Part shown: positions 8,419 through 32,458 of the stretch, in pieces
How the letters are laid out: each line of letters begins with the position of its first letter
Position numbering within the stretch: the stretch's first letter is position 1
Assembly: GCA_021825585.1 (NCBI GenBank)
Contig: JAKAGT010000009.1
Span: 90,915 to 154,914, forward strand
Source of the DNA: Bacteroidota bacterium
GTDB lineage: Bacteria; Bacteroidota; Ignavibacteria; Kryptoniales; JAKASW01
Direction of reading: 5' to 3'
DNA: 64,000 nt
The notes under the pieces: generated by a model
Seen by the model: only the letters and a program-made list of their open reading frames with translations
The model's database searches: none
Told to the model about the DNA's origin: nothing
Program-made: the position numbers and the translations under genes

Positions 8419-8495
8419 CTTTTTTTGAATAAAGAACCTTCGAGGGAGAGGTCAAATCAATTCCGCCGCAAGCGCGGAAGAGTTTATCTTGCGTT

Positions 8496-8532: not shown

Positions 8533-8548
8533 CACCATCGAGAGTAGG

Positions 8549-15923: not shown

Positions 15924-17687
15924 TCAAGATAAGCTTCCCTCATAAAGGTCCGTGTATTGTTTGTTGAAGTTATACAATTCATCATGCTTTCCGCTAACTA
16001 TGATCTTTCCGTTGTCCATTAATACCATCTTGTCAACACTCGTTATGGACGATAGTCGGTGACTGATAATTATTGTGGTTTTGTTCTCCATGATTTTTTC
16101 TGTGGCATCCCTGATCAGGCTTTCAGACTGGAGATCAATTGATGATGTAGCTTCATCCAGTACAAGTATCTTCGGATCGAGCAAAAAAACCCTCGCAATC
16201 GAAATCATTTGTTTCTGTCCGCCAGACAGTTGAAAGCCTCTCTCGCCCACTATGGTGTTATAGCCATCGGGCAGGTTGCGGATAAAATTGTCTGCATATG
16301 ACGCTCTGGCAGCTTCGCGCATTTCTTCGTCGCTGGCTTCAAGATTCGCATACCTGATGTTTTCAGCTATAGTTCCACTGAAAACATACGTCTCCTGGGG
16401 CACTATCCCTATTAACCTCCTAAGATCAGTGAGAGAATATTCCCGTATATCTTTACCATCAAGACAGATCCTCCCGCCTTGTGGCTCGTACAACCTCAAT
16501 AGCAGGTAGCCCAAAGTCGTCTTGCCAGACCCGGTTCTGCCAACTATCCCGATTCTGTCGCCGGGCCCAATGTGCAGGCTGAGATGTGCTATTCGAAAGT
16601 TGGCATCTTCTCCTCGATAGCAGAAACTAACATCCTGAAAGAGTACGTCCCCTTTGAACTTATCAGTTGCGCCTACAGTCAGAAGATGGCCTGGGTCGCC
16701 CTCAGCTTGTTGATCCAGTATGTCATATATTCTATCAATCGAGACGATGGCTGACTGAAGATTAGTCAGATATCCAAAGAGCTGAGTCGAAGGGCTGTAC
16801 AGCAGACTTAAGTATCCCACGAATCCGACCAATTGACCGGTTGTCATCCTTCCCGTGATTATGAAATACCCCGCGATTGAAAGAATCGCTATCGGTGCGA
16901 GGCTTTGAACAAATCCGTTGGCTGAACCAGCATAAGTGGATAGGAGCCAATTCTTCTTCGTAAGTTCAATCGCAGCAATTGACTTATCATTGAATCTTGT
17001 GATTTCGTAGTCCTCTTTTCGATAGGCCTTGATGCTCATAACCCCGCTGAGCATTTCTTGTAAGAATCCGCCTACCTTTGACCATTCCTCTTTCCTTGCA
17101 TTATTCACTTTCCTTATTTTGTAGTTAAACAATTTCTGGCTGACCAGGTAGAACGGAATGATTGCAAGAGCGATTGCGGCCAGCGTTCCATTGATCAGGA
17201 AAATCAGAGTTATCCCGAAAATCAAACTCAATAAGCTCTGTACCACGTTCAACGATGAAGTCCCCAATATTGAAACTGCGTCTTCGACGTCTTGAGAAAC
17301 TCGAGAAATGAGGTACCCAGTTTGCTTATCCGAGTAGTAACTAAGTGGAACATGCAACAAATGATTGAACATTCTGGCGCGGAGGGATAGCACTGAATAC
17401 AATTGGAAATTGTTAAGGAAGAAATTCTGGATAAAGCTCGAGAAGGTCTTAAGGAGGATAATTGCTGCCCAAGCAGCGATCAAAACGAAGAACAACTTAG
17501 CATCTCTAGCGGCTAGTGCTTTGTCCACAACCAACATGCTTAGCCATGGCATTGGAAGAGTGAGCAATAGGGAAAAGAGCATAAAGAAACCAGCCAGAAG
17601 AAAGTCTCTTTTCCTGTCCTTAAGAAATTTGACGAAGTTTCTGATTTTTCCCAGCTGTTTACCGTCCAATACATATTCAAAAAACAT
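15924..17687 (-). CDS. ABC exporter, fused permease + ATPase (MsbA/peptide-exporter type, no C39 peptidase domain)
   Basis: Six-TM N-half. Walker A GRTGSGKTT, signature LSGGQKQMISIARV, Walker B ILVLDEATSSID, H-loop IIISHRL. It starts 9 nt after the TonB-receptor stop. Confidence 0.9.
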   Translation of the reverse strand: MFFEYVLDGKQLGKIRNFVKFLKDRKRDFLLAGFFMLFSLLLTLPMPWLSMLVVDKALAARDAKLFFVLIAAWAAIILLKTFSSFIQNFFLNNFQLYSVLSLRARMFNHLLHVPLSYYSDKQTGYLISRVSQDVEDAVSILGTSSLNVVQSLLSLIFGITLIFLINGTLAAIALAIIPFYLVSQKLFNYKIRKVNNARKEEWSKVGGFLQEMLSGVMSIKAYRKEDYEITRFNDKSIAAIELTKKNWLLSTYAGSANGFVQSLAPIAILSIAGYFIITGRMTTGQLVGFVGYLSLLYSPSTQLFGYLTNLQSAIVSIDRIYDILDQQAEGDPGHLLTVGATDKFKGDVLFQDVSFCYRGEDANFRIAHLSLHIGPGDRIGIVGRTGSGKTTLGYLLLRLYEPQGGRICLDGKDIREYSLTDLRRLIGIVPQETYVFSGTIAENIRYANLEASDEEMREAARASYADNFIRNLPDGYNTIVGERGFQLSGGQKQMISIARVFLLDPKILVLDEATSSIDLQSESLIRDATEKIMENKTTIIISHRLSSITSVDKMVLMDNGKIIVSGKHDELYNFNKQYTDLYEGSLS

Positions 17688-17696
17688 TATCCACTC

Positions 17697-20234
17697 CTAG
17701 AAGGAATAACTCACACCTAGCGTAGGAATTAGGCCGTAAAGCAAGTTAGCCCTTCTCATTGGCCTCCCGTTGGCGTCATAGGTGTAAGTGTACGACAGAA
17801 CGTTGCGCCTGTTGAACAGGTTCATCACATCAAGATAGATTTGTAGCGGCTTATGGAACAGAGAATAGCCTTTTGCAATTTTTAAATCAACTCTTTCATA
17901 CGGGGGGTAATGGCTGGCATTTTTATTCCCCGCAACCCACAAGTACATCATTGCAGTTGAATCATAATGGCTCACATAGGGAGTGTATGCATAGCCGCTT
18001 CCATAGAAGAATCTAACGTCCAAAGACCATTTGTTTCCCAAATCAGAAATCACGGCAAGGGAAAGAGTGTGTGTTTGATCTGTGTACCGCGGATAATAAC
18101 CTTCTTTGCTGTCGAGCAATTTTTCTCGCGCAACCAAATAACTGTAGCTCAACAACAAATCTGTGTTGCCCAATGTTTCGTTGTACATTAGATCCATACC
18201 TGTCGCATATCCCTTGGCGTCATTTTGCCTCGTGCCGTATGCCAATTCACCGTCCGAAAGTCTGATCGTTGGAATCATGCTCGAATAATCTTTATAGTAG
18301 AACTCGCATCTGAGATCCATACCTCCTTCAATTTTCTTTTCAAATCCCAGGATGTACTGCACTGCTTTTTCGAAGGCCGTGTTAGTATCAGAGGCGACTG
18401 AGGACCTTAGTTGTTTGTATGTGGGAGGTTCATAATAGATCCCCCACGCAGCACGGATTGTAACTCCGAATGGCCCGGCGTACGACAAACTTGTTCGCGG
18501 CGCAAACCTAGTTTCTTTGTCCATGTCGAAGTAATCTAACCTTATTCCTGCATTAAACATTAGATTGCTTCCTATCTGCGACGTTTGTTGAAAGTACGCT
18601 GCTAAACTGTATGTCGAAGCATTTGTTATCACGGTGTCGTTATATGTCGGATCGGGAGGATAAAGCATGGTTGTTGTATCGGGGAAAAGCGTCACGTTTG
18701 TGGCCAGTATCTGGACTCCGTGCATATTCGGCGCGTCGTCATACAGTATTTTCTTTAGGGTGAATCCCCCGTCGAAATCGAGAAATTGTGACGATTGGAA
18801 ATTCAAGTCCTGGTCAAGACAGATCGTTTTTATCGAGAGGTCATCGATCAAGTTTCTATTATTTGATTGGTATGACCAAAATTGGGGGAATCCGCTGTAT
18901 GTGAGGCTGGTGCTATCCATCAGAATCGCGTGCTCATGTTCGACTTCATTGTAATATGAGGCCGTAGTCAGGGAAAGCAATTTGTCCGACAGCATATTGC
19001 TGGACCTGATCGACACCAAAGAATTCGTATAATTTGCAAGGAAGCTGGAATTGTGTACGGTGGTCTGAGATACGAGCGTCTGCTGTCCATAATAGTTCCA
19101 GTAGTACCCCAACCGGCTATAGCTATTTGAAGGAGATTGGTTAGCGTTGTCTCTTGAGAAAATCACATCTACCTTCAGCTTGTTTAAGTCGCTCAGATTG
19201 TAGTCCATCTGTCCTTGAACATCGTAGTAGTCCAAACTTATAGCAGAAGAGACGCTTAACATTCGCATCAGATAGTCAAGGTAACTTTGCCTAACACCTA
19301 TGATAAACGAACCGTTGCGGCTAACAGGTCCCTCAACCAAAACCGAGAAATCTATTAAGCTCAGATCGACCTTACCTTGGTAATTGTTCCTGTCACCGTC
19401 TTTGTAATCAATCTTCATCATGGAGCTCAGAGCATCTCCGTATTTGACGCTGAACCCTCCCGAACTGAAATCGATACTCTTAACCATGTCAATGTTAAAA
19501 ATCGACATGCTCCCACCTGCCAGTTCTTTTAAATGATCCGGGTTATAAACCTCGACTCCGTTTATCAAAATCAGGTTCTCGTCGGATGTCCCTCCGCGCA
19601 CATTTATCTTATTGCTTACTTCGTTGTCAACGCTTACCCCGGGCAATAACTGCACTGCACGTAGAGGATCTTTCGTCAAACCTGCTAGATCTCTAATCTG
19701 TTGGTTTTTGATTTCAGCCGAGCTTATTCTTCTGGGGTTTGCTTGCTCTGCATAAACGCTTACCTCCTGAAGCAAGAACCCAACAGGGGTCAGTTTAACA
19801 ACTACGGTAGAATCGTTTTTGTGAACGTCGAGCCTTTCTGTCCGGTAGCCGATATACGAGACCAACAGTGTAACTTCTTCATCAGGTAAGGAAATTCTAA
19901 ACTCACCTCTCTCATTTGTTTGAATCACTTTCTTGAAATTCTGAACTGTAACGGTTGCATAGACCAAACTCTGATTTGTCGTGGCATCGATCACTCTACC
20001 ACTGAGAACATGACTTGCTCCTTTACATAACCCTGGATTCAGAAAAAACAAAATGGAAACGACGAACATTCCGCCGCTAAAGAGATATGAAAAGAGCAAT
20101 CCGAGAATTCTGTATTCCTCCGTGGTCTTATAAGATATTGAGGGGTTGATCACGTGTATTACGCGTTTCACAGTAGAACCCGTAAGATCCTGCATACACC
20201 TTTGAAGTTCATTTTTGAATAAGCAGATCCGCAA
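17697..20234 (-). CDS. TonB-dependent receptor with N-terminal carboxypeptidase-regulatory-like domain
   Basis: GRVIDATTNQSLVYATVTVQN...GEFRISLPDEEVTLLVSYIGYRTERLDV (CarbopepD_reg-like). Plug motifs are LLPGVSVDNEVSNKINVRGGTSDENLILINGVEVYNP, followed by a long beta-barrel with a C-terminal ...LGVSYSF. The true start is uncertain; an internal Met giving MFVVSILFFLNPGLCKGAS is possible. Confidence 0.85.
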   Translation of the reverse strand: MRICLFKNELQRCMQDLTGSTVKRVIHVINPSISYKTTEEYRILGLLFSYLFSGGMFVVSILFFLNPGLCKGASHVLSGRVIDATTNQSLVYATVTVQNFKKVIQTNERGEFRISLPDEEVTLLVSYIGYRTERLDVHKNDSTVVVKLTPVGFLLQEVSVYAEQANPRRISSAEIKNQQIRDLAGLTKDPLRAVQLLPGVSVDNEVSNKINVRGGTSDENLILINGVEVYNPDHLKELAGGSMSIFNIDMVKSIDFSSGGFSVKYGDALSSMMKIDYKDGDRNNYQGKVDLSLIDFSVLVEGPVSRNGSFIIGVRQSYLDYLMRMLSVSSAISLDYYDVQGQMDYNLSDLNKLKVDVIFSRDNANQSPSNSYSRLGYYWNYYGQQTLVSQTTVHNSSFLANYTNSLVSIRSSNMLSDKLLSLTTASYYNEVEHEHAILMDSTSLTYSGFPQFWSYQSNNRNLIDDLSIKTICLDQDLNFQSSQFLDFDGGFTLKKILYDDAPNMHGVQILATNVTLFPDTTTMLYPPDPTYNDTVITNASTYSLAAYFQQTSQIGSNLMFNAGIRLDYFDMDKETRFAPRTSLSYAGPFGVTIRAAWGIYYEPPTYKQLRSSVASDTNTAFEKAVQYILGFEKKIEGGMDLRCEFYYKDYSSMIPTIRLSDGELAYGTRQNDAKGYATGMDLMYNETLGNTDLLLSYSYLVAREKLLDSKEGYYPRYTDQTHTLSLAVISDLGNKWSLDVRFFYGSGYAYTPYVSHYDSTAMMYLWVAGNKNASHYPPYERVDLKIAKGYSLFHKPLQIYLDVMNLFNRRNVLSYTYTYDANGRPMRRANLLYGLIPTLGVSYSF

Positions 20235-20257
20235 GGTTGGATTCGAATGTCGTTACT

Positions 20258-20488
20258 TTATCCGAAATTGATATAGCCGCATTCGCATCCCTGGCATATG
20301 TTGCATGTGTCGCATGCTAAGCCAACGTTACCGCAGCTGCAGGAAACGTTAGCAGCTCCACAGACGTACGTTTGGCATGTGCAACCGCCGCCACCACCAG
20401 TATCACTATTACAAGTGTTGCAGCACGGTGTCGTTGTGAATGTCTCAAGATAACTTACGTCATCATTTAACAATTCAATGCGTTTCAT
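20258..20488 (-). CDS. Cys-rich precursor-like peptide (76 aa, 13 Cys)
   Basis: MKRIELLNDDVSYLETFTTTP-CCNTCNSDTGGGGGCTCQTYVCGAANVSCSCGNVGLACDTCNICQGCECGYINFG. A strong RBS AAGGAGGTGA lies upstream of the ATG (read from the rc of 20489-20510). It sits between the rSAM maturase and the TBDR/ABC genes on the same strand. Confidence 0.75.
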   Translation of the reverse strand: MKRIELLNDDVSYLETFTTTPCCNTCNSDTGGGGGCTCQTYVCGAANVSCSCGNVGLACDTCNICQGCECGYINFG

Positions 20489-20765
20489 ACCTTCACCTCC
20501 TTTCGTAACCCAACTTTTTTGTTGGTCATTTTTGGATAGTGGTTCATCCCTGCGGATCTACAACATGATTAATAAACGGAAACCGAAAACGAAACCTGCA
20601 CACTTCATGAATCCCTGACGGTGTCACCACCAACACAAGCGTGGGCCGGATATAAATGGTTACTGCAATTGCACGTGGCCCTCGACACTCAGTGCCACGG
20701 ACCTTTCGAGATATCTTGTCGGTGTGTTTCATTATTCAATCGTCCTCTCACACAATTTTCATTTG

Positions 20766-22208
20766 TCATATTTGGCGCTCAGTTGGTATTTCCTTTCTTC
20801 CCCTTTTGTAAAAATGATAAAGGTTTTCGATTTCCGGTTTACTTGACTTAGCGATACTTGAATACACCATGATTGCTGTTTCAATAACGTGCTTAATCAA
20901 TTCACATCTCATGGGATTAGGAGTAGTCACGTCTTTGTAATAATCTTCGCTCACTGCGATGCAATCCCCGCCACAAAGAAACCTTGCCCAACACGAATTG
21001 CAAGGAACCCGAGAAAACACGTTTGTATTCACGTGTATTTCTTTTTCCCACCGTCGGTCGAAGGTTCCCGCCATAACATTTCCCATCCTGTAAGTACTAT
21101 TGACAAAGCGATGACAGGGGAAAATGTCACCGTTCGCTCCCACCGCTACATAGCCCCTTCCCGCTGCGCAGGAATAGAAATTCTTCCCATTCGCGTTCAG
21201 ATGCTTCAGGAACTTGATGATGTTACTATAACCAAAAAACTCATTTCGGGAAATCTTCCTCATCAGCTCATCTGCGATCAAGTCAATCCTATTTTCGAGG
21301 GCGCGATAATCCTCCGAGGATAGGAACCCTCTACCTGTTGTGCCTTCGGCAGTTTCAGTGTGGACAGAATAAAAACCCATAGCGAGAATATGCAGGATAT
21401 TATCAAAAGCCCTTTCAACTGAATTCGAGGTGATCGTCGTTCTCGCTGATGTTTGATCCTGCTTTGTCTTCCCGAGAAACAGAATGCTTTTCCCCTCAAC
21501 AGTCGGATACGATGGCCTTTTGTTCTTCAAGGGTCTGTTGACATTTTGCGTATCAGCGTCTCCATCTATACTGATTTGTATATTTATTCTCTCACGGTTA
21601 AAGTATTCAATTAGTTCTTCGTTAAGCAGGGTTCCATTTGTGGAAACTGAATAGCGGACCTCCTTATCTGCAGCTTTAGCTTTCTCATTTCCGTACAATA
21701 CCAACGCCTTCAAACCAACCATGTTTAACAATGGCTCTCCGCCGAAGAAGACCACGCCAACCCTTTTCGACTTTCCTGATTTTTCAATCAAGAAATCAAT
21801 GGTTTTCCTCCCCACTTCCGGTCTCATAAACCCTCTTTTCCCTCGGAAAGCACCCTGATCCGCGAAACAGTAGACGCATCGCATATTGCAATCTTGAGAT
21901 AAGATCAGGTCCATATTTCTTATTTCATATTCTGAATACTCAAAGGTGGGATCCTCAAACTCAAAAGGCTTTTCTGCGATAAGCCGTGATTCTTTCAGTT
22001 CAGTATAAGCGACCTCGATATCTTCCGCAGGGTAAGAATTTCTCAGCGCTGACAAGACTTCTTCCCTCTTTTTCAAGTTACTGGCGCCGAGGATTTGGAA
22101 GGCTAGTTCATCGACCCGAAATACTCGACACGTTTGCACGTCCAATAGCAGGTTCTTCCCGTTCTTCTTGAATAGGTGTAACTCCGGCAGGCAAGTTAGC
22201 TCATCCAC
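20766..22208 (-). CDS. Radical SAM / SPASM-domain peptide maturase (anSME-like) with N-terminal RRE-like segment
   Basis: CxxxCxxC at SQDCNMRCVYCF. Also GGEPLL, STNGTLL and ISIDG. The 7-Cys SPASM reads CAAGRGYVAVGANGDIFPCH...CNSCWARFLCGGDC...RCE. GTG start 22208 is preceded by AAGGAGG. It overlaps the upstream gene by 13 nt. Confidence 0.9.
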   Translation of the reverse strand: MDELTCLPELHLFKKNGKNLLLDVQTCRVFRVDELAFQILGASNLKKREEVLSALRNSYPAEDIEVAYTELKESRLIAEKPFEFEDPTFEYSEYEIRNMDLILSQDCNMRCVYCFADQGAFRGKRGFMRPEVGRKTIDFLIEKSGKSKRVGVVFFGGEPLLNMVGLKALVLYGNEKAKAADKEVRYSVSTNGTLLNEELIEYFNRERINIQISIDGDADTQNVNRPLKNKRPSYPTVEGKSILFLGKTKQDQTSARTTITSNSVERAFDNILHILAMGFYSVHTETAEGTTGRGFLSSEDYRALENRIDLIADELMRKISRNEFFGYSNIIKFLKHLNANGKNFYSCAAGRGYVAVGANGDIFPCHRFVNSTYRMGNVMAGTFDRRWEKEIHVNTNVFSRVPCNSCWARFLCGGDCIAVSEDYYKDVTTPNPMRCELIKHVIETAIMVYSSIAKSSKPEIENLYHFYKRGRKEIPTERQI

Positions 22209-24028
22209 AATACCTCCTTTAATTTTAAGGTCAGTAAGAGCAAATAATTGATTACCCTGACTGGAAAATTGAGAACAATTAAGAAGTGTTGCGAATTTAG
22301 TTCAAACTTTTGTGCCATAGCGAAATTCTTAACCGCATCCGAGAAGCTAAAATGATGCCTGGCCAGTTGCCGAACAAAGCTGAATCCATATTTTATGAGA
22401 AAGCTCAAACCCCAGGCCAAAATTGTATAGAGTGCGATAATCTTGGCGGCCGATTTTACCGGAAGACTTTTGGTCGGGATGAAATTCACCATGCTGTGAT
22501 TCTTAAAATGTGTTATCCTGCCAATTATTTCACTTGGCATAACCTCTTGGAAAAAGCCGTTGTCACCCTTTTCGTATATGAAACTGTTTCCCAGAAGCTT
22601 GATTCTTATGATCAGCCGGTGAGTTATGATCCTGTTGTTTCGTATGTAGGAAAAAATGTCGCCAGTTTTTAACTGGTTAGGATGCAAAAACTCGATTTTC
22701 AACTCTGTGCTCGATATAAACAAAGGAAACATGCTCTTGCCAACAGTAGACAAGACAACCGCATCTTTCGAGAGAGTATCCCCTTCATACTGAAACTGTG
22801 GGCTATGTCTTTTCAGAAAATCTATGTTCTTTTGCATAAGCGACCTAATTGCAGCATCCCTATCCGCGGATAGCAGCGCTGCTGCTTTAATGTTCCCTCT
22901 TATGTTGTCGCATCTTGTCTCAGGAATGCTTGCCGGACGGTGAAGATCATCCTCCCACTGAAGAATGCACCCACCACCACATATGGATATAGCCCAACAA
23001 GTCGTGCATTCTTTTCTGTCGTAAACCGCTGCTTTTGCAAATTGGTTCTGAATCGGCTTGTCATGGTCTGATTTTTCAATTGTCCCAGCCAGGTGCCTGG
23101 ACGACCTGATCAATCGGTGACACGGGAATATTTCCCCCTCTTTAGAAACAGCCCAGTACCATCTCCCTGCCCCGCAAGTAAAAGTCTTAGGAATGGAGGA
23201 GTTCAATGTTTCCGCATGACTTAGTATCTCAGTAATACTAAGTCCTAAACCGATACAATGGCCGTCATTCAAAATCTCGTTAAATAAATTACATTCCCCA
23301 TAACCAAACTGGATGAGCCTTATCCCTACCCGTCTTAATATATTGATGGTCTCCATTACCAAATTCTTTTGCATCCCCACATCTTCAATTCTGACACTAA
23401 CTACACGGTTAGAGGTTAATCGTCGCACAGCATCCGGTATTCTTCCCAATGCACCACGCAGATCGTCTCCGTACCTGAACAAGAGTTTCACTTCGTAGTT
23501 GTTCGACACAATAAAATCGGCCAATTGCCGGTCAACAAGTTCGATCGGGACTTGAAACAAAAACCGGTAGGAATGTTTTCTACTTCCTATCAATTCTTCA
23601 CAGAGGCGGTTCATTGAAGAAAGGATTGCCGGGTTCCTTAGGTTAAGAGTCAGATGAACCGCACGGCCAAATTGCGGCTCAAAGAAACCAACTGCTTTTT
23701 TGACAAGAGCAGTTGCACTTAAATCATTCTCAGGCAAATCCACATAAAGCGCGCTGACGAATAGAGGCTTCCATCTTATTTCGTCTTTCTTATTGATCCC
23801 GCCGAGGAACTCTTTGAGTTCATCTATGGCATCGTGCAACTCGCCAATATTGAATCTGCCTTCGAGGGTTGAGATTGCTCTATCTATATCCAAGGCCCCG
23901 CCTTCACTTAGATCCAGTAGTTCTTTAATTGCAGGGCTGAAACGAATCGTTGCAGGAAAGTCCGTCAGTATACCAACATTAACTTCTCTTGAGCCCGCGA
24001 TCTCGATATTGGGAATCTTAATCTTCAT
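22196..24028 (-). CDS. Pseudo-radical-SAM/SPASM protein fused to S26 (SipW/archaeal-type) signal-peptidase-like domain and C-terminal TM helices
   Basis: No CxxxCxxC anywhere in the 610 aa. The SPASM is intact: CGAGRWYWAVSKEGEIFPCH...CTTCWAISICGGGC...RCD (nt 22910-23176). The S26B-like block is VGKSMFPLF...LKTGDIFSY...RIITHRLI...IYEKGDNG (nt 22505-22759), followed by hydrophobic AAKIIALYTILAWGLSFLIKYGF and HFLIVLNFPVRVINYLLLLTL. Confidence 0.75.
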   Translation of the reverse strand: MKIKIPNIEIAGSREVNVGILTDFPATIRFSPAIKELLDLSEGGALDIDRAISTLEGRFNIGELHDAIDELKEFLGGINKKDEIRWKPLFVSALYVDLPENDLSATALVKKAVGFFEPQFGRAVHLTLNLRNPAILSSMNRLCEELIGSRKHSYRFLFQVPIELVDRQLADFIVSNNYEVKLLFRYGDDLRGALGRIPDAVRRLTSNRVVSVRIEDVGMQKNLVMETINILRRVGIRLIQFGYGECNLFNEILNDGHCIGLGLSITEILSHAETLNSSIPKTFTCGAGRWYWAVSKEGEIFPCHRLIRSSRHLAGTIEKSDHDKPIQNQFAKAAVYDRKECTTCWAISICGGGCILQWEDDLHRPASIPETRCDNIRGNIKAAALLSADRDAAIRSLMQKNIDFLKRHSPQFQYEGDTLSKDAVVLSTVGKSMFPLFISSTELKIEFLHPNQLKTGDIFSYIRNNRIITHRLIIRIKLLGNSFIYEKGDNGFFQEVMPSEIIGRITHFKNHSMVNFIPTKSLPVKSAAKIIALYTILAWGLSFLIKYGFSFVRQLARHHFSFSDAVKNFAMAQKFELNSQHFLIVLNFPVRVINYLLLLTLKLKEVLWMS

Positions 24029-24034
24029 TGTCTC

Positions 24035-26233
24035 TCAGAAATTGTCACACGGCTGGATGTAAGGGGTCTGCCTTACGTCCTGGTTTACGACACCAATTTT
24101 CCCAAACCGGCCTGCCACTGCCTCCTCAGCAAGCGTGCGGTAACGATCACAAAAGGATCTTTCGAATGTGCTTCTGCCGCTATCCAGGACCCTTTCCATG
24201 AAAAGACACCCGCCTGCACAGAGATTTATTAGCCAGCAATTACCGCACCGTGGTTTGCTCTTTACATCGTTCTCAACATATTCAATTTGCGATTTCAGCA
24301 ACCCGTCATCATTGCTTCCCATTGGGCTGATTCCCGCCTTTGCAAATAAGTGACAAGGATAGTATTTGCCGTCGGGAGAAATAACGACGTAGGATTTACC
24401 CGCATTGCAAAAATAATTGTACGGTTTATGGTCCATCAGCCTCCATTCAATTCCTCGAACAATGCCAATGTCCTTTCTGGGTGATTCGGCCGGAAGCAAC
24501 TCTTTGCCGAAGGGCTCTTCTGAACAAAACGGTTGAGTACATATTTGGAAATGATTAGATTGGGCCTCTCCAAAAGCTGGTGCCAAGTCTTTCAATAGTG
24601 CCTGATTTTCTGTCTGTGGAACAAGAAGGTTGATGACAAAACGTTTTTCATCTTCGCCCTCGAAATGGCTTCTAATTGATCTGAGGAGTTTTCCATAATC
24701 TCCATCTTTTGAAGTAAGCCCCGCACACAACGAGGCTGCATCAATATTTATACTGATACTTACGGTCTTAAATAACTTCCCTGAGAGTTTTTTTATGTAA
24801 TCACGGATCTTCACCAACAACTCTATTATCGATTCGTCTATAACATCTCCCAAATACAAATGGATAAACAAATCAGTTATGTAACCGGACCTTATAAACA
24901 AAAGATCAATCGCTTGCTTTGCTATCTCGAGCTGAATGACATCTGCATTACCGTTTCTATTATTCGATATTAGAATCCCTAGGCTTACCAGTACTTCTCC
25001 CCGGTTCTTGTCTTTTTCCCTTACAGATATCTCGTTCATCGATTTACCCGCTGATGACTGAACTTCTTTCAAAACCCCGATTCTTGTCAATTCGTTAAAC
25101 ATTTCAGTGATTTCATCAACACTCAATCCTAACTCTCTCTCCATGATATGAGAATCTTCCAAGGCTCTATGTCTTTCAAGAAATCGGACAAAATCGTACA
25201 TCCTCTGGTCTATCCTAGTCGCCAATTTGTGGTCGATTTGATAAAGAAAGAATTCAGCCCCCCTCTGAAACATGTGTATTTGCGAAAGGACTAAGCCCGG
25301 GTCAAATGTCTTTTCGATTGGAGAGAGTTGTGCTGACACGGAGCTTGTCAAAGGTTGCCTGCGATCTGTTTCAAGGAAATTTTCATTCTCTTTGATTTTC
25401 TTTTGAATGAAATTCTTTAATGCAAAACACTTAAGCTCCTCTGCCATGAGCACTGCCTTACTGTAATATTCGATGCTCTCGGAAAGGTGCTGTTCGATCA
25501 GGTCGCTTGCCTTCAGGTAGTTTTCAATCTGCTCCTGATCATCAGCTAAACCTAACCGGTCGTAAATCTTAAAAAGGAAATATGTATAGTTTTTGTTCGA
25601 AAAGTCTTCTCTCCAGTCCACCACATCGTCATACAGCTGGTATCCAATATGGTAATTACCCACCAACTCAGAGAAGGCCTCAATTTTTCCTTCTTCTTCT
25701 CCCGCGAGACATGCGCCTGCAGCAGAGATTTTCAATAAAGAAAACTTATGCCCGCAATTAATTAGATCCCTGTTTTCAAACCTTGCTACTTTCCCAAAGT
25801 GTAGTCGTTTTTCCCACAACGTCGCGACAACAAACTCGTTCAAGTATTTTTCGAAAAGAGCCCAGAAATAATCATTAGAGCGGAAAGCTCTCTGGTACTC
25901 TTTCATCCATTTATAATAGATGATGTTTGACACGAGGAGAGTTTCTGAAATTCTGGTCGGATCGCTTTCTTGCTGGTCTATGATCTTATCCTGCGCTAAT
26001 ATGTAGAGGGCTCCAAATAAATTGCCGAGAGAAAGTGCCCTTAGGATATTTAGGTCTATTTGTTTGGCAAACGACTCTGCGACCCAATAGGGGAAATCGA
26101 TTATTATATCCGGTTTAAGGGATATGAGTTTTCCTGAAGCGGTTGCGAAAACTCCGTCAAAGGCTAGCCTGTTCATTTCAATTCTGTACCGATCGCCAAC
26201 CAGTTTATTTTCATCACGAAGATTTATCATCAT
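24035..26233 (-). CDS. Three-part fusion: polyprenyl-synthase-like domain + RRE-like winged-helix segment + pseudo-radical-SAM/SPASM domain
   Basis: The N-domain pattern HKFSLLKISAAGACLAGEEEGKIEAFSELVGNYHIGYQLYDDVVDWRED matches the trans-IPPS KT...G.aFQ..DDxxD region, and the first motif is degenerate (ILAQDKIID). The middle segment RIDQRMYDFVRFLERHRALEDSHIMERELGLSVDEITEMFNELTRIGVLKE is PqqD/RRE-like. The C-terminal SPASM is CNAGKSYVVISPDGKYYPCH...CGNCWLINLCAGGC...FCD. There is no CxxxCxxC. I prefer start ATG 26233 (an ATGA overlap with the upstream stop) over the track start 26284. Confidence 0.7.
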   Translation of the reverse strand: MMINLRDENKLVGDRYRIEMNRLAFDGVFATASGKLISLKPDIIIDFPYWVAESFAKQIDLNILRALSLGNLFGALYILAQDKIIDQQESDPTRISETLLVSNIIYYKWMKEYQRAFRSNDYFWALFEKYLNEFVVATLWEKRLHFGKVARFENRDLINCGHKFSLLKISAAGACLAGEEEGKIEAFSELVGNYHIGYQLYDDVVDWREDFSNKNYTYFLFKIYDRLGLADDQEQIENYLKASDLIEQHLSESIEYYSKAVLMAEELKCFALKNFIQKKIKENENFLETDRRQPLTSSVSAQLSPIEKTFDPGLVLSQIHMFQRGAEFFLYQIDHKLATRIDQRMYDFVRFLERHRALEDSHIMERELGLSVDEITEMFNELTRIGVLKEVQSSAGKSMNEISVREKDKNRGEVLVSLGILISNNRNGNADVIQLEIAKQAIDLLFIRSGYITDLFIHLYLGDVIDESIIELLVKIRDYIKKLSGKLFKTVSISINIDAASLCAGLTSKDGDYGKLLRSIRSHFEGEDEKRFVINLLVPQTENQALLKDLAPAFGEAQSNHFQICTQPFCSEEPFGKELLPAESPRKDIGIVRGIEWRLMDHKPYNYFCNAGKSYVVISPDGKYYPCHLFAKAGISPMGSNDDGLLKSQIEYVENDVKSKPRCGNCWLINLCAGGCLFMERVLDSGRSTFERSFCDRYRTLAEEAVAGRFGKIGVVNQDVRQTPYIQPCDNF

Positions 26234-27195
26234 ATCAGATCCGTGGCAATATGCTTCTTGTACTTCTGCAGAGCTTCCAGACAAACTGCGGTGGTTATTT
26301 CCTCGGAACCGTCACCTCCAAAGGGATACAGTATTTCCATGGGCCAACATCCTCTGTCTCTGTCGCAACGGTCCATCAAATATTCTATCCCTCTTTCGAC
26401 ACATGTGCCGAATGCGGCACAGTCCATTAATGCTACAAGTGCAAATGCTGTCTCCAGGGTATTCCCCCACCCTCCGTTTTCATCCTGGACAAATCTTAAG
26501 TAGCGAACAATTGAGCCTCGTGCCTCTTGAAGCTCATCCGCTCTATCGACGGCGAATGCCCTGGAAACAAAACACGAAAATATTTGAGGTGAAAAGTACC
26601 ATCTTTGCGAGTTCTGCGTTTGAAGATCGTGAGACTCTCTGTTCAACCAATCGATCACTTCTTTTGTCAGAAAAGATTTATGCATCAAACTAAACAGCCA
26701 AAGGATATTGGCATTGACGGCCGCGTCGAAATCATTCTCCGAGATTGGTGAACCACCAACCCAGGTGCGGAATAGTTTTGTCACTTCATCCCTCTGGCCA
26801 AGTAGCTTTTCAGGGACCGCGAGATCGTTCATGACCCCTAGCTCATAAAGCACGGAAAGACAACACGACGTTGTATCCAGATCCAATGGCAGCTCTGAAC
26901 CGATTCCAAAGTACCTCCAATAGCTCTCTTCTTTGTTCTGAATAATAAACTCGATCGCTTTCTGCTTTATGCCGTTCAACCTGTTGGAATCGTCCAAGAA
27001 GGAAATTGAGTGGAGGACAAGAGCAGTTGGAAAAACTGTGCTACGGTAAGTTTTCATTAATTGGGAATTACTGACGAAAGAATAGTTTGCAATTTCCCCC
27101 CATGGCAGTTGATTGTCATAGATGAAATCTATCCCCTGATCAATCAATGCTTGGACGGTCTCAATCGATGCGCAACGATCACTGTTCCCAAACAC
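26230..27195 (-). CDS. Prenyltransferase / squalene-hopene-cyclase-repeat (alpha/alpha-toroid) protein
   Basis: QW-like repeat FVQDENGGWGNTLETAFALVALMD. LPLDLDTTSCCLSVL resembles the class II cyclase DxDDTA region, here as DxDT. GTG start 27195 is preceded by AGGAGA. Confidence 0.7.
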   Translation of the reverse strand: MFGNSDRCASIETVQALIDQGIDFIYDNQLPWGEIANYSFVSNSQLMKTYRSTVFPTALVLHSISFLDDSNRLNGIKQKAIEFIIQNKEESYWRYFGIGSELPLDLDTTSCCLSVLYELGVMNDLAVPEKLLGQRDEVTKLFRTWVGGSPISENDFDAAVNANILWLFSLMHKSFLTKEVIDWLNRESHDLQTQNSQRWYFSPQIFSCFVSRAFAVDRADELQEARGSIVRYLRFVQDENGGWGNTLETAFALVALMDCAAFGTCVERGIEYLMDRCDRDRGCWPMEILYPFGGDGSEEITTAVCLEALQKYKKHIATDLI

Positions 27196-27337
27196 CTATG
27201 ATCTCCTGTCTCTCGCTTGTTCAACCCGTTCAGAGGAAAACGGGATAATCCCTTTTGATCACCGCCAATGACACGAGATTATAGCGCGGAAAGGAGCGAA
27301 TCAACAGGTATTTGTACGTAACCTTTGCGTGGCTACT

Positions 27338-27973
27338 TCAAGCCGTGAAAGTGTCACGAAAATAAATCGCAAATCTTATCAGTTCAGACAGCCCGCTCAA
27401 GTGCGTTTTTTCTATTATGTTTGTTCGATGACAGTCAACCGTTCTCTTGCTGATATAAAGTCGCAAACCTATTTCTTTACTTGAGTATCCTAAGCCAATA
27501 AGTCCAAGGATTTCCTTTTCTCTAGCTGACAAAGTCTGAATTTTATCATTCCATGGCCTATTCTTACCCGTTTCATCAGTCTTAGATTCATCGCATCGTT
27601 GGTTGCAGAGTGCCCATATCGGTCTCGGTATTGATTCTGGTCGCCCGCTAATCCGAAGTCCTCTTCTACAGAGAACAGTTACCCGTTTGTCGTCAACTTC
27701 AGGACAGCCTCCATAAAGACACAATTCAGATAAGACTAAGAGCTGAGCGAAATCGTATGGGAGGATCCTATTGATGGTGTTCACGATACTCTGATAATTC
27801 CGGTCGTATGATAAATTCAGGAAAACAACTTCATTCCGGTCTTTGTTAAGGTCGCTGACAGAGCGTAGAACTTTTATTACACGATATCCGTTTGCCACCA
27901 AGTATCCCCTTATTGCCTCCGCAACTATTTCATTCTCATCGATAAGAATTATGCTTATGTTTTTCCTCGACAC
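27338..27973 (-). CDS. LuxR/FixJ-type transcription regulator with atypical receiver-like N-domain
   Basis: C-terminal HTH LSAREKEILGLIGLGYSSKEIGLRLYISKRTVDCHRTNIIEKTHL. The N-terminal ISIILIDENEIVAEAIRGYL is receiver-like. The expected phospho-Asp position after beta-3 reads VVFLNLS. Confidence 0.8.
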   Translation of the reverse strand: MSRKNISIILIDENEIVAEAIRGYLVANGYRVIKVLRSVSDLNKDRNEVVFLNLSYDRNYQSIVNTINRILPYDFAQLLVLSELCLYGGCPEVDDKRVTVLCRRGLRISGRPESIPRPIWALCNQRCDESKTDETGKNRPWNDKIQTLSAREKEILGLIGLGYSSKEIGLRLYISKRTVDCHRTNIIEKTHLSGLSELIRFAIYFRDTFTA

Positions 27974-28055
27974 TATCCCGCCTCACACCATTCCAAACGA
28001 AGGTGATGGCTCTTTCGTCGCATACGTAATTGTGGCATCCTTTTGATCATCACCT

Positions 28056-28691
28056 TTACCCAGTGCAAAAGGTCTTGAGTTCACAACTCGCAAACCGGTA
28101 AATGTATATCTTTGCAATTGTGGGAGCACTATGCAGCCCGGTCACAAGGAAAAGAGTCGGTCCCATGGCACCACGAGAAAATGTGGAGGGGTTCGGAAAC
28201 ATGGTTCGCCCGCAGCAATTCTTGTTTCTGGATTTTTGGCCCACCATGTTGCACAAGGAGGGAACAAAGAGAGAGATAACAGAGCACGACGCCGCGACCT
28301 GCAGTGGAGGGCCTCTCCTCATCACTGTGTCATTCGTGCTGACGTTTGTTGCCAGGAACCCATACCCCGTCACTTCGTCAACATTGTGAAGGCCAATGAG
28401 ACCATTCCCATCTACGACACCCCCTGAAGGATCCGGGTTCAACTTAGGAGGATGACGGAGTGCAGGAAGCAAGATATCTCTCCATACTTCTCCGTTAGGG
28501 GGTAAAGGATTAGGAGTCCATGTTGGGGATAGGATAATAATCACCTTGGCTAGGCTCCGGCACGGAAGTGCCTCAGCTTGAGAAAATTCCCCACAAACGG
28601 TTAAGCCCAATATTAGAAACAACAGAACATGAGAGAAGACGCCTCGTTTTCCCAGTCCAATTTCCCTTTCGATCAGCATCTCTTTGTGCAC
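28056..28691 (-). CDS. Hypothetical protein with N-terminal hydrophobic segment (weak call)
   Basis: 211-aa ORF with the signal-like stretch VFSHVLLFLILGLTVCGEFSQAEA. No recognisable motif, and it may be non-coding. Confidence 0.3.
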   Translation of the reverse strand: MHKEMLIEREIGLGKRGVFSHVLLFLILGLTVCGEFSQAEALPCRSLAKVIIILSPTWTPNPLPPNGEVWRDILLPALRHPPKLNPDPSGGVVDGNGLIGLHNVDEVTGYGFLATNVSTNDTVMRRGPPLQVAASCSVISLFVPSLCNMVGQKSRNKNCCGRTMFPNPSTFSRGAMGPTLFLVTGLHSAPTIAKIYIYRFASCELKTFCTG

Positions 28692-28941
28692 CGCTCTTCG
28701 TGTTTGACAAGGTCGACCACATAATCAGGGAACATGCACCCCTGTGCCCCGACTTTCCGCACCATGATACGGCTACGTTTGTTTTGTTGTTTGCATCCGG
28801 ATCGTACTGTGCCACAGTATACAATCGGACTTTTAAAATGTCAACGTTTTTTACGGTTTCCGGTTTCTTACTGTCTGAATGGCACTGTCACTAATGGTGA
28901 GCAAGTTTTGCGCCCAAACACAATCCTTCGAATTGAGATAG

Positions 28942-29013
28942 AAAGCGAGCTTTAGAAACCAATTTTCCAGAAAGTTGGAAAATGCTCGCTTTTACTTTCC
29001 AGTTTTCTGGAAA
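28942..29013. repeat. Compound palindrome / nested inverted repeats upstream of integrase remnant
   Basis: Outer arms AAAGCGAGC(28942-28950)/GCTCGCTTT(28984-28992) enclose ATTTTCCA(28962-28969)/TGGAAAAT(28976-28983). Next comes a second IR, TTTCCAG(28996-29002)/CTGGAAA(29007-29013). All share a TTCCA/TGGAA core. Confidence 0.5.
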
Positions 29014-29364
29014 ATCCGGCGATCAGGCTGTGGAAGTGAGTTACGCACCAAGCGAAGGGATATGCCCGCAAGACCATCTACTGCAACAGCTGATTAATCC
29101 CAAAAATTGAGCGAGAAACTCCGATGATGCCGGTTATCGCTCCCTTCTTACCGGCAGGAATCACAAGGGATCCAGCATTTCCTTTAAGACATGAGAAGAC
29201 CGCCGGATCCCTTTTGACCATTTCACGAAGGGGCAAATCCTTCTAATAGATAATCGTCAAATTGGTCAAATAAAACTGTTGATTCCCGGTTTTCAATTTA
29301 TGCTTTTATGGAAGTAACTTGATTTTCCCTAACTGAATTTAAATTCCAACTAATTGGGAGAAAA

Positions 29365-29955
29365 ATGGTTACCAGCGATTGGAAGCTTCTCGACTCGTAT
29401 CTGCAGCATTGCGGTTACGAGAGACACCTTGGTGCCTTAAGCCTTAAAGCCTACGGGATTGATCTCAGGCAATTCCTCCTCTTCATAAGCGGAAGATCGG
29501 ATTTCCATCAGGTTGACAAAGAGACACTCAAGGCTTACTTGAAACACCTGTTCGGCGTTCCACTCAGAGAGTCAAGCGTAAAAAGGAAGATTACCTGCCT
29601 CAAGGGTTTCTTCGCATTCCTCGAAGCTGAGCAAGTCATTGAGGAAAGTCCCTTCCACAAAATGAAATTCTCGATCAAGATCCCGAGGAGATTGCCTGAA
29701 GTCATGAACATAAGGGATGTGACAGAGCTTATCACCCTTGCGAAGCAGAACCTTGAAAAGAGGAAATCTACGACTCGCGAAAAGATTGATCTATCATCCT
29801 GCGTTGAACACGGAGATCTTGTGGCTTTTCAGGATCTCATCATTATTGAGCTTCTTTTTGCAACCGGCATGAGGGTGAAAGAACTATCAAGCCTCAATGT
29901 GGGCGACATAGACCTCGTCAGAAGATTAAACGATATAGGCTCCTGCACGGGATGA
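29365..29955 (+). pseudogene. Tyrosine recombinase (XerC/D-like integrase), 3'-truncated
   Basis: N-terminal SAM-like core-binding domain (LSLKAYGIDLRQFLLFI..., VKRKITCLKGFFAFLEAEQVI). The catalytic domain begins (ELLFATGMRVKELSSLNVGDIDL, containing the first catalytic Arg) and then ends after about 20 more codons. The H-R-Y part is missing. Confidence 0.7.
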
Positions 29956-30083
29956 CGCGAAAGCATCTGGCGATCCAACTAGGAGTAGACGAAACAACAC
30001 TTCATCGATTGGAGGCTGGAACAGGGAAACATTCTGCAGGGACCTTGAAAAAGATATCTGACCTTATCGAGTCATCCACATGA
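29952..30083 (+). pseudogene. XRE-family HTH fragment abutting the integrase remnant
   Basis: (KIKRYRLLHG)MTRKHLAIQLGVDETTLHRLEAGTGKHSAGTLKKISDLIESST is a Cro/C1-type HTH. The reading frame is open back into the integrase ORF in a different frame, so this is a fusion junction. Confidence 0.5.
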
Positions 30084-30390: not shown

Positions 30391-32458
30391 ATCCTGTTAG
30401 CCTATTGAACCCTCGTCAATCCCGACTCCTGCCGGCAGGAGTCGGGAGAGGTTTTCCCTCATACGGCTTTCCTGATACACATCATATGCTGGCGAAAGCC
30501 GACATGTCCGATAGTCAGAGTATAAACCGAGAGTGCCATAGATATAATCCGAGGAGATTCTTCCTCCCCAGCCATATCCACGTCTCCCACGATGCCTTTG
30601 GATCACCCGTCTCACACGCTTGTTCACAAAGTTCCGGACATCTTTCAGTGTGTCACTACTGTGCCCAAGTCGGAAGTATCCAACCCAACCACGGAGAAAC
30701 CGATTGACATCCTGCACTTGGTCTTTCACTCGCTTTGCTCTCGCGTGGTGTACCAATTGACGGATTCTCTCCCGGCACCGTTGCTGACTTTTCGGACTCG
30801 GCGACACAAGTATCAACCGCGTCCCTGTTTTCCTGCTCCTCACATTCGAGAACCGGAAGCCAAGAAACTCCACGTTTGCTCCCTCTTCCAAACGAAGCCT
30901 CCGTGTCTTCTCTTTGTTCAGCGTCAGCCCTAAGCGTTCGAGGTAGTGTTCAAGTAGGGCTATCCCTGTATCCAGTTCTCTTTGTGCAAGTAGTATCATA
31001 TCGTCCGCGTAGCGTACCAAGTGGATTGACCCTTTGCTTATCGCTCCGAGTCCGCTCCGCTTGAATATCTGGTCGATAGGATTCAGGTATATGTTTGCCA
31101 ATAATGGACTTATTACTCCTCCCTGTGGTGTCCCTCGCTTGCTCTGCTTGTGCTGTCCATCTTCGATATATCCAGAGCTCAGCCAGAGCTTGATTACGTG
31201 GAGTATCTGCTTATCCACTATTCTCCGCGCTATCAGCTTCATCAGCTTATGGTGTTCGACCGTGTCAAAGTACTTCTCAAGGTCTACATCATAAACTTCA
31301 GCACATCCCCAGTTCAGGTACTTGCCCGTCTCTGACGAGGTCTCGCCTAAAGGCGGATATATTTCCCGTACCGCATCGTGCGCACCCTCGTTCGGTCTGA
31401 ACCCGTGACTACTTTCGGCAAAGTCTGCCTCAAATATAGGTTCGAGTATTAACAAGAATGTAGTCTGCACTATGCGATCCCGAACAATAGGAATCCCCAA
31501 TGGTCGTTTCTTGCCATTGGCTTTCGGGATATATACTCGCCTTACTGGCTGCGGTTTGTACCGCCGTTGCTTCATCTCAAGCTGGAGTCCGGCAAGATAT
31601 TCCTCAAGACCTCGTTCCTCTATCATCGCGCAGGTCTCTCCGTCTATCCCGCTCGTTCCACCGTTGGCTTTCACCTTGTCGTAGACTCCGTCTGAGTCTA
31701 CGGACTCTGACGAGCGGTAGGCTTCTGCCAGCACATCCGTGCGATATGTTTTGTCGTACAGACTGTAGAATCTGAACTTCGGCTCTGCTTTCGCCTTCTC
31801 ATACAGCTTCCTCTGTAACTCCTGGAGATTTCCGGTACTTGTTAGCTCTCGCAATGTACTCTCCTTCTGCGCCATAGGCGCATCAGCTTCTGGCTGAGTT
31901 CCTTTGGTTGCTGTGTATCAGTAGAGACCCTTCCCTCCGCTCTGCTTTCACAGAACATCCTAAGTACTACGGTCTCATCCGCCATTGCCGCTCCAACATT
32001 ATATCTGTTATATGATGCGGCATGCCGTGAACGGCACCTGCCGGCTTCCTCCGCTTTCGTTTCCTTATACGGAAGCTCTTCTCTCACCTTCTCGGTGGGG
32101 CCGGCGAGGACTTCCCGAGTTCCCTTCCTCACTTTCTGACCATGTCGCCGCTCACACCCCGGAGACGCCGTGTACCGCTCATCCTCTGTACTTGGAACAC
32201 AGTTCTGACTTCGCCTATAAAATAGAGGCTCGTCCATCTCTGTCATCTTTACGAGGCTACCTTCGCGTTCACTCACGTTGCAACCTGGTCATTCGCGTTG
32301 CGTCCTTTCAGACTACGTTGTCGAGTCGCTTAGTATGAGTCCGTTTCCAAACTCATACCGACCCCTCGCTATGGCGCCAAAGGCGCCATCCGGAACCTTG
32401 CAGGGAGATCGCCTCTCCCTCCTCATCCAGATAGTTAAGGAACAGTTTAGCTCGGCAC
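30391..32458 (-). mobile_element. Group II intron (ribozyme + IEP); boundaries approximate
   Basis: On the minus strand, GTGCCGAGC begins at 32458, immediately after the TGA (32461-32459) of the upstream gene. About 583 nt of structured, ORF-poor sequence precedes the RT ORF. The candidate 3' end ...GGCTAACAGGAT (AY terminus) is at about 30391, with a 10-11-bp hairpin CCCGACTCCTG/CAGGAGTCGGG just upstream. Total length is about 2.07 kb. Confidence 0.7.
30397..31875 (-). CDS. Group II intron reverse transcriptase/maturase (no endonuclease domain)
   Basis: RT motifs RVYIPKANGKKRPLGIPIVRDRIVQ, DLEKYFDTVEH, GTPQGGVISPLLANIYL, VRYADDMILL, LTLNKEKT and FLGFRF. Domain X is RFLRGWVGYFRLGHS. There is no HNH/En region. 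Confidence 0.9.
   Translation of the reverse strand: MAQKESTLRELTSTGNLQELQRKLYEKAKAEPKFRFYSLYDKTYRTDVLAEAYRSSESVDSDGVYDKVKANGGTSGIDGETCAMIEERGLEEYLAGLQLEMKQRRYKPQPVRRVYIPKANGKKRPLGIPIVRDRIVQTTFLLILEPIFEADFAESSHGFRPNEGAHDAVREIYPPLGETSSETGKYLNWGCAEVYDVDLEKYFDTVEHHKLMKLIARRIVDKQILHVIKLWLSSGYIEDGQHKQSKRGTPQGGVISPLLANIYLNPIDQIFKRSGLGAISKGSIHLVRYADDMILLAQRELDTGIALLEHYLERLGLTLNKEKTRRLRLEEGANVEFLGFRFSNVRSRKTGTRLILVSPSPKSQQRCRERIRQLVHHARAKRVKDQVQDVNRFLRGWVGYFRLGHSSDTLKDVRNFVNKRVRRVIQRHRGRRGYGWGGRISSDYIYGTLGLYSDYRTCRLSPAYDVYQESRMRENLSRLLPAGVGIDEGSIG

Follow-up and report, generated by a model that had tools for sequence, protein, structure and literature searches.

We report on a cluster of eight genes (positions 15924-27973) in a 64,000 nt stretch of DNA from a Bacteroidota bacterium (contig JAKAGT010000009.1), which is called the window here and in whose numbering all positions are given unless another locus is named. 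The cluster combines a small Cys-rich peptide with one true radical S-adenosylmethionine (rSAM)/SPASM protein, two pseudo-rSAM/SPASM fusion proteins, a terpene cyclase-like protein, a LuxR-type protein, a TonB-dependent receptor (TBDR) and an ABC exporter. With moderate confidence we read it as the operon of a ribosomally made peptide with post-translational modifications (RiPP), in which thioether cross-linking is joined with a peptide-bound, cyclised prenyl group. The product is probably a Cys-rich, cross-linked peptide with a cyclised terpene group. The domain identities, the paralogy of the rSAM-type proteins, the fusions and the synteny from which this reading starts are direct observations.

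Conservation and domain content of the cluster

The precursor peptide (20258-20488, minus strand) comprises 76 aa with 13 Cys and no Trp. It consists of the leader MKRIELLNDDVSYLETFTTTP and a core which starts with CCNTCNSDTGGGGGCTCQTYVC and ends with CGYINFG. The initial annotation had singled out this open reading frame (ORF) together with its ribosome binding site, and both are found: a Shine-Dalgarno-like AAGGAGGTGA (20493-20502, minus strand) is read 4 nt upstream of the ATG. A lack of conservation beside the enzymes had been named beforehand as one of the findings that would speak against the annotation, and the ORF proves to be conserved. Homologues are present in every complete locus, amounting to eight peptides, the one in L008 previously not called as a gene. 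All eight share the leader pattern M-K-H-I-E-L-L-N-x-D...T-x-T-x-x-P over ~21 residues and a core beginning with CCN..N. Invariant are IELLN.D, T..PCCN..N and GC.C.[TS]Y, the latter preceded by a mostly conserved Gly run. An aromatic residue is located no more than 2 residues from the end in seven of the eight, the exception being the short second peptide of L003. Trp occurs in a single peptide of the clade and is not conserved. Neither Pfam nor NCBIfam yields a match for the precursor at E<=0.1. The Shine-Dalgarno sequence is a strong one; Bacteroidota are generally regarded as making little use of such sequences. It may cause an excess translation of the precursor relative to the enzymes.

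Relatives of the cluster were searched among ~5.8 billion (5.8e9) proteins and the loci were compared by tblastn. Five relatives of the 732-aa fusion protein and four of the 610-aa fusion protein were retrieved. Besides the window there are four complete syntenic loci (L001/L006, L002, L003, L008) and three partial copies (L007, L009, L011), all from uncultured Bacteroidota or metagenomes; the two bearing organism names are metagenome-assembled genomes (MAGs) of 'uncultured Bacteroidetes'. The order GerE-type regulator, ~320-aa toroid protein, ~730-780-aa fusion, ~610-aa fusion, rSAM, small ORF(s), TBDR and ABC exporter is kept in L001/L006, L003 and L008, and L002 shows the same order minus the TBDR. 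Proteins of these independent loci are 26-77% identical (true rSAM 43-77%; ABC exporter 46-76% and present in every complete locus). The same order at such identities argues that the arrangement is not due to chance. A genome scan with the alignment of the 732-aa family (A1) returned L006 and L007 only, a genome scan with alignment A2 gave no matches, and metagenome scans gave none either, whether started from the precursor family or from A1. Judged from these sequence comparisons, the cluster is real, conserved and extremely rare, and the view that it represents a genuine conserved RiPP-type cluster is borne out by the same gene set in four further complete loci.

All eight ORFs are located on the minus strand in the same direction, as seen from the ORF listing and translation, and their dense packing is confirmed by reading the junctions. 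The 321-aa and 732-aa genes are joined by an ATGA stop/start overlap at 26233-26230, the gap between the 732-aa and 610-aa genes is 6 nt long (GAGACA), and the 610-aa and rSAM genes overlap by 13 nt (22196-22208). The gene overlaps imply translational coupling. The 732-aa gene (24035-26233) had been annotated as a fusion of 749 aa. The fusion is real, the length is not: the mechanical ORF extends to 26284, whereas the ATGA overlap places the true start at ATG 26233 and the length at 732 aa. In this form the protein is identical to the database protein P0001. In L001 (4.5-Mb MAG chromosome OY969888.1) the orthologue is broken into ORFs of 81 and 653 aa (L001 9756-11962), by either a frameshift (pseudogene) or an assembly error.

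The 480-aa protein (20766-22208, minus strand) is the true rSAM/SPASM maturase with matches to Pfam Radical_SAM, Fer4_12 and SPASM. Its best NCBIfam families are the SCIFF maturase (TIGR03974, 311.4 bits, cut-off 425), PapB (NF047865, 251.9 bits, cut-off 340), the Nif11-type maturase and QhpD, all of them below the respective cut-offs. Each of these families forms thioethers or related cross-links. By these matches it is classed as a putative SCIFF/PapB/QhpD-like thioether-type rSAM/SPASM protein. The CX3CX2C motif (C107NMRCVYC) is found in this protein only; the 610-aa and 732-aa proteins have SPASM without a radical SAM motif. When compared with the true rSAM family by hhalign, residues 3-388 of the 610-aa protein (22865-24022) align to rSAM 5-450 (Prob 99.8, E=9.8e-28) and residues 311-707 of the 732-aa protein (24113-25303, SPASM at ~24188-24409) align to rSAM 2-447 (Prob 98.8, E=4.6e-17). 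Both fusions keep the RiPP recognition element (RRE)-like N-terminus and the SPASM cysteines, whereas the alignment has a gap at the SAM-cluster loop. Hence both are true pseudo-rSAM paralogues, and the count of one true and two pseudo-rSAM/SPASM proteins made at the outset stands. The 732-aa pseudo-rSAM has a degenerate barrel, a complete set of SPASM cysteines (TIGR04085, 42.8 bits, cut-off 27) and an invariant PCDNF at the protein end. The barrel of the 610-aa paralogue is likewise degenerate and its SPASM part holds eight invariant Cys (TIGR04085, 49.1 bits); in the PDB this part matches the SCIFF maturase CteB (5wgg, E=3e-18). No match of either pseudo-rSAM to TIGR04150 (GG-Bacteroidales pseudo-rSAM) was obtained at E<=0.1 in NCBIfam.

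The N-terminal domain of the 732-aa protein (aa 1-290, 25364-26233) shows a trans-isoprenyl-diphosphate-synthase (trans-IDS) fold and is a putative peptide prenyltransferase. It has no Pfam match, no Pfam model was found for its family, and the ComQ family in NCBIfam does not match the 732-aa protein. With a threshold of E<=1e-3, an exhaustive profile search collected no fewer than 1,513 representative proteins (753 at E<=1e-10). They comprise stand-alone proteins (~310-340 aa) and fusions to squalene-hopene cyclase (SHC)-like toroids, to pseudo-rSAM/SPASM and to true rSAM modules; among 63 long members examined, these fusions number 42, six and four, respectively. A profile of 22 sequences matches polyprenyl, hexaprenyl and farnesyl diphosphate synthases in the PDB (E=1.6e-6) with the first and the second Asp-rich motif (FARM, SARM) in register. 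The PDB matches are significant to E~4e-4 and belong to the trans-isoprenyl pyrophosphate synthase (trans-IPPS) family without exception down to E~0.3. The AlphaFold2 model (mean predicted local distance difference test, pLDDT, 92.6) leads to the same fold: the top Foldseek matches are all trans-IPPS with template modelling scores up to 0.78, including geranylgeranyl and hexaprenyl diphosphate synthases as well as MoeN5 and Ord1, which are non-elongating prenyl-transfer enzymes. Across the 22 diverse members D82, D86 (QDKIID), K168 and DDxxDWxxD (202-210, including W207) are invariant, K163 and Q199 nearly so. The SARM DDxxD (202-206) is thus invariant, with Q199 just upstream.

The 321-aa protein (26230-27195, minus strand) is a single-domain protein with D105-x-D107-T-T (LPLDLDTTSCC) and a QW-like QDENGGWG. 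Using phmmer against the PDB, aa 39-310 match drimenol synthase 9mhs (E=2.2e-6), DLDTTS aligning on DLDTTS. The family profile matches SHC (3e-33), the ~360-aa chains 8pak/8paj (5e-29/2.5e-24) and MstE (2.5e-12). The AlphaFold2 model has a pLDDT of 79 and a predicted template modelling score of 0.86, and its top 36 Foldseek matches are all class II cyclases, AsDMS first at 2e-9. The DxD is conserved across the clade as DxDTT or DxDDT(A), with DLDTT in the window and DLDDTA in L007. The motif is DADD in the distant relative P0005, a protein in which prenyltransferase and cyclase domains are fused as in the 42 of 63 long members mentioned above. DxDTT is the proven general acid in AsDMS, where the D333N mutant is inactive (PMC9128629). 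We conclude that the 321-aa protein is homologous to the beta-domain of class II terpene cyclases. A LanC-like or protein-prenyltransferase-beta identity was rejected (NisC E=0.039 and RabGGTase-beta 1.7e-4 versus SHC 3e-33), and both types are outside the Foldseek top 50. The former label as SHC/prenyltransferase-repeat protein is therefore kept for its cyclase half and dropped for the prenyltransferase beta-subunit, based on the profile and Foldseek tests.

Residues 421-519 of the 610-aa protein (22472-22768) form a putative leader peptidase domain of the Sec11/SipW type (S26B-like). They match TIGR02228 (sigpep_I_arch) in NCBIfam with E=1.6e-6 and 28.1 bits, below the cut-off of 51.85, and the protein has no Pfam S24/S26 match. 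The motifs GxS432MxPL, TH470R and EKGDN (486-490), which correspond to the catalytic Ser, the His and the GDN box of this peptidase type, do not vary among six members, the most distant at 26% identity. SEC11A/C are the sole PDB matches of the protein outside the rSAM enzymes (E~0.1-0.2), and its relative P0156 is labelled 'signal peptidase I' in the JGI source. The peptidase is followed by two hydrophobic segments in the Kyte-Doolittle scan (aa 527-545 and 581-601; membrane anchor at 22226-22450), which are conserved in the orthologues. Taken together, the polyprenyl-synthase-like, S26-like and cyclase-like assignments made from the sequence at first sight are upheld in the profile and structure tests.

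Proposed pathway and competing explanations

A model for the pathway draws on ChrPC, by which an internal Trp is first prenylated (P domain, C10-C20 donors) and the attached group is then cyclised (C domain; Hubrich et al. 2024, summarised in PMC13290415). In our proposal the true rSAM/SPASM enzyme would install Cys-derived thioether cross-links as in ranthipeptides. The pseudo-rSAM/RRE module of the 732-aa protein would act as a leader-binding scaffold and present the core to the fused trans-IDS-fold domain. There the Asp-rich motifs would ionise a prenyl diphosphate (C10-C20), and the prenyl group would pass to a core residue. Owing to the lack of a conserved Trp in this precursor clade, the acceptor is most likely the invariant Tyr of GC.C.[TS]Y, or a Cys. 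The translationally coupled cyclase may then protonate the distal double bond via D107 of DxDTT, and the peptide-bound prenyl chain would be cyclised as by the C domain of ChrPC and MstE. The second pseudo-rSAM/RRE scaffold, in the 610-aa protein, would bring the Ser-His peptidase to the leader, with cleavage possibly after the conserved T-x-T. Presumably the inner membrane holds this protein in place next to the ABC exporter, which would carry the product across that membrane. The Oar-like TBDR may serve outer-membrane passage or re-uptake, in either case as an accessory.

If so, the cluster would encode the first RiPP with both rSAM thioethers and a cyclised isoprenoid on a non-Trp residue (the invariant Tyr or a Cys), attached via a split ChrPC-like pair. 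A duplicated rSAM stripped of its SAM cluster would be the leader-recognition carrier by which one precursor receives both a prenyltransferase and a Sec11-type leader peptidase, a principle previously undescribed. This further-reaching claim is put forward tentatively.

Several points weigh against the proposed pathway. Every catalytic step is deduced from homology. Trp is the acceptor of all characterised trans-IDS-like peptide prenyltransferases, yet the window precursor is free of Trp. The FARM-like motif is degenerate (D82xxxD86 in QDKIID, i.e. DxxxD rather than DDxxD). As the rSAM protein scores below all curated thioether-maturase cut-offs, the type of cross-link is uncertain. Two stretches of the 321-aa model are of low confidence. 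The S26 assignment combines a sub-threshold HMM match with motifs, and such a peptidase would have to work on the cytoplasmic face, which is atypical of signal peptidases. ChrPC itself is compared by architecture and published description.

Some of these points would also suit an ordinary ranthipeptide or SCIFF-like cluster, in which the terpene-fold proteins and the pseudo-rSAMs were scaffolds, chaperones or unrelated and the product carried no isoprenoid. The best matches of the rSAM are indeed SCIFF and PapB maturases, the sole acceptor known for this type of prenyltransferase is missing from the precursor, the FARM is degenerate, and the cluster already contains pseudo-enzymes. However, both terpene-fold proteins keep their catalytic residues in deep alignments (DxxxD, K/K, Q and DDxxDWxxD; DxD of DxDTT/DxDD), which is not expected for a pure scaffold role. 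Moreover fusions of these two domains, with each other and with rSAMs, occur repeatedly beside Cys-rich peptides. We thus consider a plain ranthipeptide unlikely. Two adjacent but independent pathways, one for a small-molecule terpenoid (IPPS-like domain plus cyclase) and one for a RiPP, would account for the presence of what are standard terpenoid pathway parts. Against such a separation the IPPS-like domain is covalently fused to an RRE/pseudo-rSAM paralogue in all clade members and to true rSAMs elsewhere, the genes overlap and seem translationally coupled, the synteny is strict over 26-77% identity, and no further terpenoid genes were recognised among the eight cluster proteins and ten flanking ORFs scanned. 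Independent pathways are hence very improbable.

A third explanation concerns the role of the product and is compatible with the proposed biosynthetic scheme: the peptide may mainly bind metal, similar to a metallophore or chalkophore, being secreted by the exporter and re-imported as metal complex by the TBDR, with the terpene, if any, as an accessory. A Cys-rich core (13 Cys in the peptide) with Gly runs fits this function, as do exporter and receptor within one operon, which is the typical logic of siderophore and methanobactin systems. On the other hand L002 lost the receptor and kept all biosynthetic genes plus the exporter, thioether formation by the rSAM, if it takes place, leaves fewer thiols for a metal, and neither a metal-responsive regulator nor other uptake components are seen in the cluster. 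The receptor architecture (CarboxypepD_reg-Plug-barrel) is that of Oar from Myxococcus, which is implicated in export rather than uptake. A primarily metal-binding product appears rather improbable to us, and the hybrid of thioether cross-linking and cyclised prenyl group is the reading we retain.

Remaining genes and genomic surroundings

The first gene of the cluster (27338-27973, minus strand) encodes a LuxR/GerE-family protein of 211 aa with a helix-turn-helix at aa 146-202 (Pfam GerE, E=7.7e-14) and an N-terminal half that is receiver-like in appearance. L001 has an orthologue with 44% identity at this position, and L003 a GerE protein. We infer that it is the regulator of the operon. At the other end the ABC exporter (587 aa, 15924-17687, minus strand) is a fused protein of transmembrane and nucleotide-binding domains (Pfam ABC_membrane and ABC_tran, with NCBIfam matches). 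It is MsbA/HlyB-like and without a C39 peptidase domain.

The TBDR ORF (845 aa, 17697-20234, minus strand; Pfam CarboxypepD_reg, Plug and barrel) begins with TTG at 20234 and is ~55 codons longer than its orthologues (789-804 aa) according to the N-terminal alignment. The true start is likely the ATG near 20069 (MFVVSILFF...), judging by this alignment. Consequently the gap between precursor and TBDR would be ~188 nt instead of the 23 nt noted initially. The receptor is found in L001, L003 and L008 and deleted in L002, hence it is dispensable for the system. At the site of the deletion (L002 6750-7225) a 40-aa remnant ORF ends with GVSYSFY, matching the receptor C-terminus.

Two further ORFs, one of 62 aa (20544-20732) and one of 211 aa (28056-28691), have no family matches and no conservation and are treated as non-coding. 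Predicted sigma-70 promoters and terminators across the cluster do not exceed the shuffle expectation, in a scan that excludes Bacteroidota promoter types.

The cluster is located in a low-GC block from ~16 to ~30 kb (window ~16000-30000), whose GC content is 42-47% compared to 52-55% on either side. L001 also shows a drop, from 0.50 around the orthologous cluster to 0.44-0.46 within it. No convincing att-like direct repeats were found around the block. Its right edge is marked by a truncated tyrosine integrase (29365-29955, plus strand) consisting of the SAM-like N-domain and the start of the catalytic domain. The integrase is adjoined by a group II intron (30397-32398, minus strand) with a reverse transcriptase/maturase ORF (30397-31875) and RNA domains D1-D4 (32147-32398). 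A near-perfect 20-nt inverted repeat with a 14-nt spacer (28962-29015; ATTTTCCAGAAAGTTGGAAA / TTTCCAGTTTTCTGGAAAAT) is located between regulator and integrase fragment, where the DNA seems to be non-coding. Genes flanking the cluster encode type IX secretion system (T9SS) sorting domains. Further away, a cobalamin riboswitch (8187-8432, plus strand; Rfam RF00174, 96.8 bits) is located directly 5' of a second TonB-dependent receptor gene and a DUF5074/YncE-like beta-propeller gene (8489-10444 and 10453-11502). Riboswitch, receptor and beta-propeller probably represent a B12 uptake operon.

Comparison with known systems

Terpene-decorated ribosomal peptides were first reported in 2024, and 'steromaze' is listed among the known terpene-RiPP hybrids (PMC13647313). 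The trans-IDS-like peptide prenyltransferases are ComQ, PalQ and the P domain of ChrPC, and all characterised ones target Trp (PMC13290415). According to the initial annotation, no characterised RiPP class was known to combine isoprenoid-synthase-like and cyclase proteins. This is not supported as, according to the description in PMC13290415, ChrPC does so; hence the terpene/RiPP idea is not new and the system is not a new class. As far as ChrPC is described there, both systems pair a trans-IDS-like prenyltransferase with a class II-type cyclase and use a ribosomal peptide as substrate. The window domain has a nearly invariant Gln upstream of the SARM beside a FARM reduced to DxxxD, Ord1 is among its structural neighbours, its family largely consists of P-C fusions, and P0005 has the architecture of ChrPC. 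In contrast to the published ChrPC, P and C are separate, overlapping genes in the window and fused only in distant relatives such as P0005, and P is part of a fusion with an RRE/pseudo-rSAM/SPASM module. The precursor is without Trp whereas the characterised members of this type prenylate Trp, and the window adds an rSAM of the thioether type, a peptidase fused to a pseudo-rSAM, an ABC exporter and a TBDR.

The L004 locus of P0005 (L004 1403-8131) also encodes an rSAM, a 58-aa Cys/Trp-rich peptide (…QCWTCGCNCDDCDTETTISFWN), a 310-aa protein of unknown type and a geranylgeranyl-reductase-like flavoprotein, which hints at a reduction of the prenyl chain. L010 (10001-13340) encodes P0012, a fusion of a trans-IDS-like domain with a true rSAM (CX3CX2C at 416). 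After it come two Cys-rich peptides in tandem, which have a conserved Trp and whose leader (MKKHIRLINEA.DDVP...) is a related one. In evolutionary terms this locus may stand between ChrPC-like systems and the type found in the window. L012 (173-10433) holds a 1,117-aa triple fusion of class II cyclase, trans-IDS-like domain and a C-terminal Cys-rich part, after which an Rce1-like CAAX-type protease (PF02517) and a large polyketide synthase are encoded. Rce1 trims prenylated CaaX proteins in eukaryotes, which makes the pairing suggestive.

ComQ/ComX and PalQ of Bacillus and Paenibacillus likewise represent an IPPS-fold enzyme repurposed for prenyl transfer onto a ribosomal peptide. They differ by the lack of a cyclase, an rSAM and an RRE fusion, by the Trp acceptor and by being quorum-sensing systems of Firmicutes. 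The SCIFF/ranthipeptide maturases (CteB, PapB) and QhpD share the rSAM, the RRE-like N-terminal region, SPASM and a Cys-rich substrate with the window. Its precursor, in contrast, is outside the curated SCIFF/ranthipeptide precursor families, and its maturase is below the cut-offs. The literature searched describes neither ranthipeptide clusters with pseudo-rSAM paralogues or terpene enzymes nor an equivalent of the combination of ranthipeptide, signal peptidase and terpene. AsDMS (beta-domain), MstE and 8pak/8paj resemble the 321-aa protein by a single alpha/alpha-toroid of ~320-365 aa with a DxDTT/DxDD general-acid motif, at identities of 21-24% (AsDMS) and 15-18% (8pak/8paj and MstE). The prenyl chain that MstE cyclises is likewise one already bound to an acceptor which is not a terpenoid. 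The 321-aa protein differs by having no HAD domain and by its presumed substrate, a prenylated peptide. The pseudo-rSAM of GG-leader Bacteroidales (TIGR04150) is also an rSAM paralogue without SAM cluster in a RiPP system of Bacteroidota, but the pseudo-rSAMs of the window are fused to catalytic domains.

The novelty initially claimed is only partly borne out. No Pfam or NCBIfam family covers the precursor or the fusion domains; ChrPC is a published precedent, and the relatives of the N-terminal domain are mostly prenyltransferase-cyclase fusions. The at least 1,513 representatives of the trans-IDS-like domain, mostly fused to class II cyclases or rSAMs, provide a list for genome mining. The cluster itself is a testable case of a non-Trp acceptor for trans-IDS-like peptide prenyltransferases, of a hybrid between ranthipeptide-type cross-linking and cyclic-terpene lipidation, and of dead rSAM paralogues as leader-binding delivery modules for two unrelated enzymes, the last of which could become a design principle for the engineering of RiPP pathways. 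Compared with the known systems, new here are the split prenyltransferase/cyclase pair, the pseudo-rSAM modules with their presumed delivery role, the combination with ranthipeptide-type chemistry and the Trp-free precursor.

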